This document shows, in pieces, positions 8,371 through 59,002 of a DNA stretch of 64,000 nucleotides. Position 1 is the first letter of the stretch; each line of letters starts with the position of its first letter. The notes under the pieces were generated by a model. The model was not told where the DNA came from and did no database searches. It saw only the letters and a program-made list of their open reading frames with translations. A program made the position numbers and the translations under genes. The stretch spans positions 256,001-320,000 of the forward strand of contig CAVPLU010000004.1 in NCBI GenBank assembly GCA_963706285.1, in the 5' to 3' direction. Source of the DNA: Candidatus Bathyarchaeota archaeon (GTDB lineage Archaea; Thermoproteota; Bathyarchaeia; 40CM-2-53-6).

Positions 8371-8535
8371 AGCCCGGTGGGGGAGCAGTAGGTTGCTCCG
8401 CCGAATGTAGTGGACAAAGGAAACCGTATTCCGTCTAGGCATAGCGGGCTTTGGTTCTCGCTCAACGAGAAGAAACCCGCCGACGGGAGTTCGAATGGTT
8501 CGTCAGAGAACCCGAACATCTCCCCCGGGCTACCA
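8371..8535 (+). tRNA. tRNA-Gln(UUG) with four BHB introns (8381-8405, 8418-8438, 8455-8474, 8496-8518) and encoded CCA
   Basis: Removing the four inserts gives a 76-nt cloverleaf AGCCCGG TG GTGT AGTGGACAA GCAT A GCGGG CTTTGGA CCCGC CGAC GGGAG TTCGAAT CTCCC CCGGGCT A CCA, with the archaeal Gln A1-U72 pair. Each junction forms a 4-bp helix flanked by 3-nt bulges. Confidence 0.93.
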
Positions 8536-56771: not shown

Positions 56772-57650
56772 GTGCGAATCGGTTCAAGCATCGTGCTGAT
56801 CATTGGAATTATCGCCGTTTCAGCTGCATCGATTCTAATTCGCAACGCGCAGACCCAGGCGCCTTCACTAGTCATTGCAGCCTACCGCTTGGCGATCGCG
56901 TCGCTCGTGGTTGTGCCTGTAGCCCTGTGGCGCAACCAGAACGAGTTGCATAGGCTCCGTGCAAAGGAGTGGATCCTAATGATTATCGCTGGTGTATTCC
57001 TTGCACTTCACTTTGCGACATGGGTTACTTCGCTTGAGTACACATCAGTGACGAGTTCAGTTGTGCTGGTCACTACCTCGCCGTTATGGGTTGCCTTGGT
57101 GTCATGGATTATTCTCCGCGAAAGACTGACGCGCCCAATAATCTTCGGATTGATCGTGGCGGTCGTCGGCGGTTTCATCATAGGTTTGGGCGATACAACG
57201 CAAGGATCCAGAAGTGCTCCGCTGCTTGGCGATTCTCTAGCACTTCTCGGCGCTTTCATGGTGACGGGCTACTGGCTGATCGGCAGGCGCATACGCAGCT
57301 CGCAGTCACTGACGTCATACGTAGCGATCGTCTACGGTACAGCCGCCGTAGTCTTGCTCATGATGGTTGGAGCAGCACATCAATCGCTGGCAGGCTATGA
57401 TCCGGTCATCTACCTGTGGTTGGTATTACTTGCGCTGGTCCCTCAACTGATTGGTCATTCATCATTCAATTGGGCGCTCGCGCGTCTACCGGCCGTATCA
57501 GTGGCTGTTGCTACACTGGGCGAACCAATTGGAGCCTCTATCTTAGCATACTTTCTGCTCGGAGAAGCGCCAACAACGCTTACCATGCTAGGCGCCGTGT
57601 TAGTCCTTACCGGTATTGCGTTGACTCTACGCGCTCAACCAAACGCCTGA
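56772..57650 (+). CDS. DMT/EamA family transporter
   Basis: About 10 TM; FLALHFATW, GD.LAL, QLIGH, GEP. Confidence 0.9.
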   Translation: MRIGSSIVLIIGIIAVSAASILIRNAQTQAPSLVIAAYRLAIASLVVVPVALWRNQNELHRLRAKEWILMIIAGVFLALHFATWVTSLEYTSVTSSVVLVTTSPLWVALVSWIILRERLTRPIIFGLIVAVVGGFIIGLGDTTQGSRSAPLLGDSLALLGAFMVTGYWLIGRRIRSSQSLTSYVAIVYGTAAVVLLMMVGAAHQSLAGYDPVIYLWLVLLALVPQLIGHSSFNWALARLPAVSVAVATLGEPIGASILAYFLLGEAPTTLTMLGAVLVLTGIALTLRAQPNA

Positions 57651-57730
57651 ACCGGCTACGAATCAAATAACCCGCTGAAAGAGAATCAAGTGAGGGAAGG
57701 TTGAACATTCGTAGTGGGAGAATGTCTAGT

Positions 57731-57893
57731 TGGCGCCGCCGGAAGGATTCGAACCTCTAGTCGCGCCCGCGCGCTTCGACCAACGGGTCGCTGCCATGTG
57801 GCTAACAGCTTCAGCCTCAATCTTCTCGATTGAGTCCGCTGCTCTGCCACTGAGCTATCGTCTATGATCAAAGGATTGATCGTAAACGGCGGC
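57731..57893 (-). tRNA. tRNA-Asn(GUU) with four BHB introns (57885-57857, 57835-57810, 57802-57789, 57775-57757) and encoded CCA
   Basis: Removing the inserts gives a 75-nt cloverleaf GCCGCCG TA GCTC AGTGGCA GAGC A GCGGG CTGTTAA CCCGT TGGTC GAAGG TTCGAAT CCTTC CGGCGGC G CCA; BHB geometry at each junction. Confidence 0.92.
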
Positions 57894-57932
57894 TCTATTC
57901 GGCGGCACCGATTTCACGGAGCCTCAAGCCGC

Positions 57933-57949
57933 TTATTTAAGAGTTCATC
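57933..57949 (-). promoter_or_regulatory. BRE/TATA promoter of tRNA-Asn
   Basis: GATGAACTC-TTAAATAA on the minus strand, about 23 nt upstream of the inferred leader start (~57909). Confidence 0.6.
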
Positions 57950-58236
57950 GTCGACCGAATCCAGACCAAACTCATCAAAAACCGAATTGGGTGACATTCC
58001 GTTCTACCGTAGATCCAAAGAGCTCACGCTCGAGCCGAAGTGGTTGTTGGATAAGGACGGTTGCAGACCTATGATCTTGATTTCACAGATCAGCGATGAA
58101 TTGCTCGACTTCCTAATGGCGAGAGATCGACTAGCCTAACCCTCAATGCAATCATTCTTAACTGCGCTCAAGTCGGAAGAGTTCGCTTCATTACTCAATG
58201 CGAAAGCTCCTGGACTGAGACCGGGAGACTATTCTG

Positions 58237-58552
58237 CTAGCTTGATCCAGACGGCGTCTGTTTTGACCGTCGGATGTTTTGAATTTCTACTGCCAGGCTC
58301 TTCAGCACATTCGATCTAGTTTTGTCTCCTCGCTTGACCACAACATCAGCCGGTCTTCTCCCACCAGCGATAAGGGAGCGCCGAGTGCGGGGAGGGCTGC
58401 GGGTCGTACGATAGTTTCCTTGCCGCTTGCTCCAATTCATCAACTCGGGGCGCTTGAACTGAGTGAGATTTTGCGAGGCTCCTTCCTTGAGATCTGGATT
58501 TTGTCGAGTCGAGCGCTGCGGGCCAGACTACCATCTTTCCGTTCTGTTTCAA
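58237..58552 (-). CDS. srp19: Signal recognition particle protein SRP19 with an apparent +1 frameshift at ~58347
   Basis: VWPAALDSTKSRSQGR..P.RWWEKTG; deleting one G gives KTGYVVVKRG..; follows rps8e as is usual in archaea. Confidence 0.85.
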
Positions 58553-58606
58553 CCCGTGGACACTCCGCTCTCGTTGGATGCCTCGCGAGTTCAGCCGAGA
58601 AACGAT

Positions 58607-59002
58607 CTAGGCTTGGGCCTTCTGGGTAAGAATTGCGTTGACAACGCCGTGTTGTCCTGGTCGTGAGGTCACACGGGCTTGCCCCAAGGGAGTCTCGAGT
58701 ATGGCGCCTTTCGTTATCACGCCTCGACGTTGATAGTCAACATTGGCTGGGTTCTTGACAACGCTCTTGATCTCGGTCTTCTCTGTCTTCCCAGTTGCTG
58801 GGTCTGTCACGTTTGCGAATTTGGTTGCGAGCACGCTAAGTTTGGTCGTGCCGCCACGTCCTCGTTTCGCTACTATTCGAGGTTCGCCTATCACGGTCGC
58901 TGCGGGGTCGCTGCCCATCTCGTATGCACGCTTACCTCGGAAGATCTTTCTTCGTCCTCCGGAAGGTTTGCGTTTGTGTAGGTCACCATGCCATTGAGGC
59001 AA
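58607..59002 (-). CDS. rps8e: 30S ribosomal protein S8e
   Basis: RKPSGG, GRGG, NPAN..RRGVITKGA, VTSRPGQHGVVNA. Confidence 0.96.
   Translation of the reverse strand: MPQWHGDLHKRKPSGGRRKIFRGKRAYEMGSDPAATVIGEPRIVAKRGRGGTTKLSVLATKFANVTDPATGKTEKTEIKSVVKNPANVDYQRRGVITKGAILETPLGQARVTSRPGQHGVVNAILTQKAQA

Follow-up and report, generated by a model that had tools for sequence, protein, structure and literature searches.

According to the available part of the tRNAscan-SE 2.0 report (2021, PMC8450103), three introns are the maximum for an archaeal tRNA gene, and the record is 71 introns distributed over 46 genes, in Pyrobaculum calidifontis. In three Asgard genomes, introns are present in 92-95% of the tRNA genes (10.1101/2023.11.21.568159, accessible part), and three Asgard families reach 2.2 intervening sequences per gene, with up to five, many of these introns being located in the D-arm and missed by the annotator (bioRxiv 10.64898/2026.10.13.758758, October 2026, accessible text). 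In the extracts available, cleavage of non-canonical introns has been linked to the (alpha-beta)2 and epsilon2 types of the splicing endonuclease EndA (PMC5829648; PMC4090602), and introns of the eukaryote Cyanidioschyzon merolae are described as being removed stepwise, in an order following the stability of their BHB motifs (PMC3728597).

For Bathyarchaeia, full-text searches of the literature yielded no report of multi-intron tRNA genes (supplementary tables could list some), and the word stem 'Bathyarchae' is absent from the text of the October 2026 preprint. The locus considered here lies within the window, i.e. the whole stretch of 64,000 nucleotides that was analysed, and belongs to a Bathyarchaeia archaeon. 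It is very probably a real tRNA-Asn(GUU) gene interrupted by four BHB introns, and the single functional gene of this organism for that tRNA. Its exon/intron anatomy, the geometry of its BHB motifs, its conservation and covariation, its uniqueness in the assembly and the presence of the corresponding enzymes are established. This is a known kind of gene in a lineage for which no record was found, in a genome whose level of tRNA interruption equals the highest described for Asgard archaea and exceeds the highest described for Thermoproteales.

The host assembly is a metagenome bin of 2.13 Mb in 21 contigs (51% G+C, 89% complete, 7.5% contaminated). The closest loci of the ribosomal S8e gene neighbouring tRNA-Asn belong to Candidatus Bathyarchaeia bins from soil, peat and wetland, and the public runs containing sequence of the window are mostly labelled as wetland or peat metagenomes.

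Anatomy of the tRNA-Asn(GUU) locus

The locus (57893-57731, minus strand) is composed of five exons and four introns, and joining the exons by script gives 75 nt, including the encoded CCA (72 nt without it). The spliced product is called tRNA-Asn(gtt) by ARAGORN, with a perfect cloverleaf in which all 21 stem pairs are formed (7/7 in the acceptor, 4/4 in the D, 5/5 in the anticodon and 5/5 in the T stem), followed by G73 and the encoded CCA. It harbors the hallmarks of an RF00005-type cloverleaf, namely U8, A14, GG in the D-loop, U33 and a T-loop of the form G-T-T-C-R-A ... C. The G73 discriminator is an Asn identity element, and with the anticodon GTT (57806-57804) it marks the predicted product as a tRNA-Asn.

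All parts of the gene are read on the minus strand. Exon 1 (57886-57893, 8 nt) covers tRNA positions 1-8, that is the 5' acceptor strand and U8, and none of its eight columns is variable in the genus. Intron 1 (57857-57885, 29 nt, site 8/9), which combines a long internal helix with one C-A mismatch in its central helix, separates it from exon 2 (57836-57856, 21 nt), which spans positions 9-30 (D arm, position 26 and the first four nucleotides of the anticodon stem) and varies at 1/21 columns in the genus. Intron 2 (57810-57835, 26 nt, site 30/31) has a perfect 4-bp central helix and a 7-bp internal helix, and precedes exon 3 (57803-57809), the 7 nt of which correspond to positions 31-37 including the anticodon GUU. 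Intron 3 (57789-57802, 14 nt) occupies the canonical site 37/38, its 4-bp central helix containing one G-U pair and its inner part extending barely beyond the loop. Exon 4 (57776-57788, 13 nt; positions 38-50) is invariant in the genus, as is exon 3. Finally, intron 4 (57757-57775, 19 nt, site 50/51), with all four pairs of its central helix formed, interrupts the T stem and is followed by exon 5 (57731-57756, 26 nt), which comprises positions 51-73 and the encoded CCA (57733-57731), with 2/26 columns variable in the genus.

Before splicing, nothing of this is visible to standard tools: ARAGORN, applied to the 64-kb window as unspliced DNA, detects no tRNA, nor does the window contain any Rfam match at gathering thresholds, including RF00005 at the tRNA-Asn locus, where a score below threshold is expected because of the 88 nt of insertions. 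The original prediction, made from the sequence, had placed four introns of 29, 26, 14 and 19 nt in a 75-nt tRNA-Asn with G73; its exon coordinates, intron lengths, sites and motifs all hold under scripted joining, ARAGORN and BHB scoring, the length counting the encoded CCA, and the C-A mismatch that it had described in the intron 1 helix reappears as a score of 3/4.

These scores come from a scorer developed in this analysis, in which the BHB is taken as a 4-bp central helix between two 3-nt bulges holding the splice sites. The central helix is formed at 3/4 in intron 1 (inner score 6, outer 4) and at 4/4 in intron 2 (inner 7), intron 3 (inner 1) and intron 4 (inner 4, outer 3). All four introns display the 3-4-3 geometry of archaeal BHB introns, and the orthologs keep it; introns 1 and 3, the former with its C-A mismatch and the latter with almost no inner helix, are to be read from their sequences as relaxed forms of the motif.

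Other types of interrupted gene were considered. Self-splicing group I or group II introns are built around a catalytic RNA core that runs to hundreds of nucleotides, and the introns here measure 14-29 nt in a window free of Rfam matches. A split or permuted tRNA gene does not correspond to five exons that are collinear within 163 nt of one strand. Small open reading frames of the plus strand that overlap or flank the locus (57864-58139, 57416-57670 and 58279-58629) have no Pfam match and were treated as unsupported.

Orthologous loci and the position of the junctions

BLAST of the Asn locus against 30 relatives detected it in all nine other genomes of the same genus, each of which carries an interrupted Asn gene, and partially across the family and the order. 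When the mature tRNA-Asn was aligned to 20 orthologous loci with intron jumps allowed, four introns were found in nine loci (seven of the ten genus members and two genomes of other genera in the family), three in eight, and two in three, these last loci having kept only the 8/9 and 30/31 introns. A further 19 named Bathyarchaeia loci, obtained via the neighbouring S8e gene, comprise one with four introns, 13 with three and five with two; for the other 61 of the 80 loci reached through S8e, no Asn alignment could be used, which confines this scoring to the order of the host.

The four introns differ in their distribution. Those at 8/9 and 30/31 are present in all 39 loci (20 + 19), the one at 37/38 is missing in 3/20 and 5/19 loci, and the one at 50/51 is restricted to seven of the ten same-genus genomes and two genomes of other genera, with a precise gap in three genus members. 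By this pattern, the 8/9 and 30/31 introns are old, the canonical one comes and goes, and the 50/51 intron, the patchiest, is the youngest. As some close relatives carry the latter and others have an exact gap in its place, it is a useful case for the evolution of BHB introns. It occurs in three genera and is precisely missing within two of them, a distribution that would imply either several exact losses or a lateral replacement of the gene.

Conservation follows the exon boundaries. In the alignment of the ten genus sequences, variable columns amount to 3/75 in exons and 35/92 in introns, and all 65 of the 65 columns of the flank past CCA are variable, which marks the 3' end of the gene. In the 39 loci, which come from several families, the exon sequences show little or no change, in contrast with the divergent introns and flanks. 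The BHB helices are also maintained: in the ten genus sequences, 94.7% of the cells are paired, and displacing the partners by 1-3 columns lowers this figure to 26-40%. Double-sided changes are seen in five pairs, all of them in the internal helices of introns 1 and 2 (pairs 4-6 of the internal helix for the compensatory changes of intron 2). In a shuffle control, the observed number of double-sided changes is reached in 17/500 replicates, a modest result, and the covariation score is equalled in 5/500. Covariation is seen in introns 1 and 2; introns 3 and 4 have helices that are invariant in the genus, so that covariation is uninformative for them. In the 20 loci, bulges and central helices are fixed and internal helices interchange A-U, G-U and G-C pairs and their reverses, and the C-A mismatch of intron 1 is present in all ten genus members. 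Read by eye, intron 4 in the two other genera has a different 3' strand of the central helix that still pairs.

A gene that is real and spliced could nevertheless be cut differently from what the BHB motifs indicate, at some junctions or by another route, for example with intron 1 in another register or cut late, or with an HBh' or BHL substrate in place of the full hBHBh'. Thermodynamics leans that way: minimum-energy folds pick other registers for introns 1-3, only intron 4 adopting the expected central helix when the introns are folded singly in a spliced context, and folding of the whole precursor does not reproduce the BHBs. Energy mostly misses these motifs and was left out as support for the BHB reading. 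In addition, introns 1 and 2 have their junctions in short direct repeats, so several equivalent cut pairs yield an identical product, and some exon nucleotides that pair in the outer helix of intron 2 are also needed for the central helix of intron 3, so that these two helices overlap and compete. Against these points, intron 1 ends without T in some relatives, which permits only a cut at 8/9, and the 3-4-3 geometry of introns 1 and 2 is retained in all 20 loci; moreover, the mature product is the same under both readings. Divergent junctions are thus unlikely, and cleavage at the four BHB motifs is the preferred reading.

Standing of the gene and tRNA census of the host genome

Another question is whether this locus is the working gene. 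Because the bin is 89% complete and six of the 46 tRNA species to be expected were not recovered from it, the interrupted locus might be a decaying, non-functional tRNA-like relic, with a working tRNA-Asn encoded on a copy absent from the assembly. What speaks against such a relic, and makes it very improbable, is first the near-invariance of the exons over 39 loci of several families amid diverging introns and flanks, and the interrupted state of the gene in 9/9 other genomes of the genus. A BRE/TATA-like block (57933-57948, minus strand, with a TATA-like octamer at 57940-57933, ~40-55 nt before G1) is also nearly invariant in the ten same-genus loci, while the sequence farther upstream varies (53/92 upstream columns overall); by its position and composition it is a putative archaeal promoter of the pre-tRNA-Asn. 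BLAST of the mature sequence against the host assembly finds only the exons of this locus, with no second or uninterrupted tRNA-Asn; an uninterrupted gene, with the present copy left unprocessed, would have contradicted the original prediction. Lastly, all 43 tRNA loci recovered in the genome are interrupted, making interruption the norm in this host. Public transcript data are neutral on expression: four RNA-labelled runs have contigs over the S8e gene only (58564-59000, minus strand) and none over tRNA-Asn. The S8e contigs, from soil or freshwater runs, cover that gene at 95-100% identity, which hints weakly at transcription by close relatives in these samples.

The 43 loci were obtained with a splice-graph tRNA finder, which starts from T-loop seeds, extends them arm by arm under cloverleaf constraints, BHB jumps being allowed on the way, and submits the spliced product to ARAGORN. 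BHB-like candidates are frequent (0.14 per position at score >=9), hence the need for a decoy control. The reversed genome contains as many of them as the real one (580,266 vs 580,047), and low-scoring solutions abound in both, with 1,376 in the real genome and 1,134 in the decoy. The two part at high scores: a first pass on the real genome returned 40 solutions at rank >=18, among which the tRNA-Asn locus has a cloverleaf score of 22/22 and a rank of 21.5, whereas the decoy gave none at rank >=18 or cloverleaf score >=21 (best rank 16.7), nor any at score >=20 in the most permissive pass (23 seeds run, 4 timed out). The idea that such abundant candidates allow any region to be 'spliced' into a cloverleaf by chance, to which the candidate density and the many low-scoring solutions lend some appeal, is already refuted by the decoy and by the conservation of the locus in orthologs, and its probability is negligible.

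The union of three finder passes gives a census of 43 loci, each confirmed by ARAGORN after splicing. They represent 38 anticodons or, counting three distinct CAU genes, 40 of the 46 species to be expected. No locus was recovered for Arg-UCU, Asp-GUC, Glu-UUC, Leu-UAA, Leu-CAA and Pro-GGG. CCA was required in the search with weak BHBs, so CCA-less tRNA genes with weak motifs may be missed (weak jumps without the CCA rule covered ~7% of the genome), and 18 seeds of the real genome timed out in pass 2 and 7 in pass 3. Two regions with a full-length Rfam tRNA match yielded no census entry. The one at C3:165487-165603 (region 165400-165800) is Pro(GGG)-like, with four or more introns, two of which exceed 30 nt, and several paths tie; the other (C4:191214-191342, region 191150-191400) has a good acceptor and T arm, no consistent anticodon arm and no finder solution. 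Three census loci are duplicates on small contigs: C1 and C20 repeat tRNA genes of large contigs with identical introns (Arg-UCG on the one hand, Thr-GGU and a CAU gene on the other), which is consistent with the estimated contamination of 7.5% or with the presence of a second strain among the binned contigs.

The 43 loci hold 101 introns of 12-65 nt (median 21), i.e. a mean of 2.35 per gene. One intron is present in eight loci, two in 19, three in ten, four in five (Asn, Phe(GAA), Gln(UUG), Gln(CUG) and Arg(CCU)), and five in a single locus, tRNA-Trp. The commonest sites are 37/38 (26 introns), 30/31 (11), 29/30 (8), 59/60 (7) and the D-loop, and 50/51 occurs only once among the 101 introns, in Asn. 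The genome-wide fragmentation of tRNA genes anticipated by the original prediction is borne out, none of the 43 loci being intron-free and only 8/43 having a single intron, where a majority of intron-less or single-intron genes would have contradicted it. Its expectation of three or more introns in most tRNAs went too far (16/43 loci, two being the commonest number), and its expectation of 'missing' tRNAs in standard annotation proved right: the Rfam tRNA model gives 23 matches in the host genome, nearly all longer than a plain tRNA, of which 16 are above cut-off, for at least 43 loci. With its intron option, ARAGORN calls Phe(gaa) at the Val(GAC) and Thr(GGU) loci, Pyl(cta) at Pro(UGG), and Trp(cca) at Arg(UCG) and Gly(UCC), mislabelling them because it can model only one intron.

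Several of these genes deserve mention. The other tRNA of the window, tRNA-Gln(UUG) (8371-8532, plus strand; C4:264371-264532), has a 22/22 cloverleaf, an encoded CCA and introns of 25, 21, 20 and 23 nt at 10/11, at the end of the D-loop/22, at 37/38 and at 59/60. Both tRNAs of the window are therefore four-intron genes with just the canonical 37/38 site in common, as had been claimed. The 59/60 intron of tRNA-Gln(UUG) is 95.7% identical to its counterpart in tRNA-Gln(CUG) on contig C12; in an all-against-all BLAST of the 101 introns, conducted with regard to intron transposition, sharing was found only among Gln isoacceptors, among Ala isoacceptors and between duplicate contigs. tRNA-Trp(CCA) (C13:120380-120597, minus strand) carries its five introns at 10/11, 28/29, 37/38, in the variable loop and at 59/60, and in 18 well-aligned orthologous loci, the exons of which are invariant, five introns are present in ten, four in four and three in four. 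The canonical intron of tRNA-Trp (57-68 nt) is strongly conserved, with C/D-box-like motifs, and may be the guide RNA that other archaea carry in the intron of tRNA-Trp. A tRNA(CAU) at C4:386124-386265 (minus strand) shows an apparent intron of 30 nt at 71/72, only two nucleotides ahead of the discriminator; its removal gives a perfect acceptor stem and CCA (BHB score 12).

Splicing enzymes, proposed processing and known systems

The host genome encodes two PF01974 genes, a 186-aa alpha subunit of EndA on contig C12 and a 174-aa beta subunit on contig C6. Full-length alignments of the alpha subunit to catalytic chains from S. tokodaii, A. pernix and P. aerophilum have E values of 4e-40 to 4e-31. 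The alpha subunit retains the Tyr, His and Lys of the aligned motifs, and the beta subunit has His and Arg in place of the Tyr and His of M. jannaschii. The Crenarchaea-specific extra loop corresponds to D34-A46 in P. aerophilum (PMC2724299, accessible part), and the loop stretch of the alpha subunit aligns without gap to S. tokodaii and with one gap to A. pernix, with no deletion. By these alignments, the enzyme classifies as a two-subunit (alpha-beta)2 EndA of the crenarchaeal type with the extra loop, one of the outcomes that the original prediction had foreseen, and the combination of an alpha subunit, a degenerate beta subunit and the loop region is consistent with the broad specificity that it had proposed. 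The ligase RtcB is present in two adjacent frames (C4:105729-107043, minus strand; model positions 1-243 and 236-426). As one intact frame is found in 8/12 relatives searched, the break is probably an assembly frameshift, although relative G002 is split likewise.

With these enzymes, a processing pathway can be proposed for tRNA-Asn. Transcription from the conserved BRE/TATA-like element would give a precursor of ~180 nt, in which the (alpha-beta)2 endonuclease would cut each intron in the two 3-nt bulges beside the 4-bp helix. RtcB would ligate the five exons, and trimming of the ends would release the 72-nt tRNA with its genome-encoded CCA. The BHB of intron 1 would draw on the 5' acceptor strand, that of intron 2 on the last part of the D stem and the first part of the anticodon stem, and that of intron 4 on the variable loop and T stem. 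Since the four motifs and the cloverleaf cannot all form at one time, the introns are probably removed in steps or by way of relaxed motifs. Five exons, down to 7 nt in length, with competing BHBs make this gene a demanding substrate for studies of splicing order.

How far such interruption extends in Bathyarchaeia can be approached by the number of RF00005 matches per genome, taken as a proxy in 101 genomes that are >=85% complete, the upper figure of 43 meaning at least 43. The nine genomes of the host's family have 10-15 matches each, the 17 genomes of other families of its order 11-29, and the 75 genomes of other orders of the class from 17 to at least 43, with at least 25 in 62/75 and none at 15 or fewer. 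The low counts indicate that heavy tRNA interruption is concentrated in the order of the host, and most of all in its family. On balance, this soil and peat order of Bathyarchaeia, above all the host's family, seems to constitute a third hotspot of tRNA interruption, beside Thermoproteales and some Asgard archaea.

If true, the coexistence of old, order-wide introns (Asn 8/9 and 30/31) with young introns that are polymorphic in the genus (50/51) provides a series for the study of intron gain and loss. Genome-bin quality standards count tRNAs, and the tRNA counts by which Bathyarchaeia bins are graded would then be systematically too low: bins would be under-graded when finders miss such genes, and codon/tRNA inferences would be wrong for an abundant sediment and soil group.

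The closest described systems each share part of these features. As in Thermoproteales such as Pyrobaculum calidifontis and Thermofilum, with which it is united in a wider group (Thermoproteota/TACK), the host has several short BHB introns per gene, at the canonical and many non-canonical sites, and a two-subunit EndA with the Crenarchaea-specific loop. Unlike them, it has 101 introns in 43 loci (2.35), no intron-free locus recovered, and genes with four or five introns, in a lineage of mesophilic soil/peat Bathyarchaeia. Its unrelated tRNA genes share no introns, in contrast with the intron transposition in Thermoproteales that is cited in the accessible text of bioRxiv 10.64898/2026.10.13.758758. 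The nuclear tRNA genes of Cyanidioschyzon merolae likewise have ectopic and multiple BHB-type introns, there up to three in the part available of PMC3728597; some genes of this eukaryote are permuted, whereas the host exons are collinear, with no permutation seen. In Asgard archaea, as far as the accessible texts describe them, nearly every tRNA gene is interrupted as well, at ~2.2 per gene and up to five, many weak-motif D-arm introns are overlooked by standard tools, and the habitat is also wetland soil. The phylum is different, and the most frequent non-canonical sites of the host are 30/31, 29/30, 59/60 and the D-loop. Four and five introns per gene in Bathyarchaeia suggest that this extreme state of tRNA genes arose more than once.
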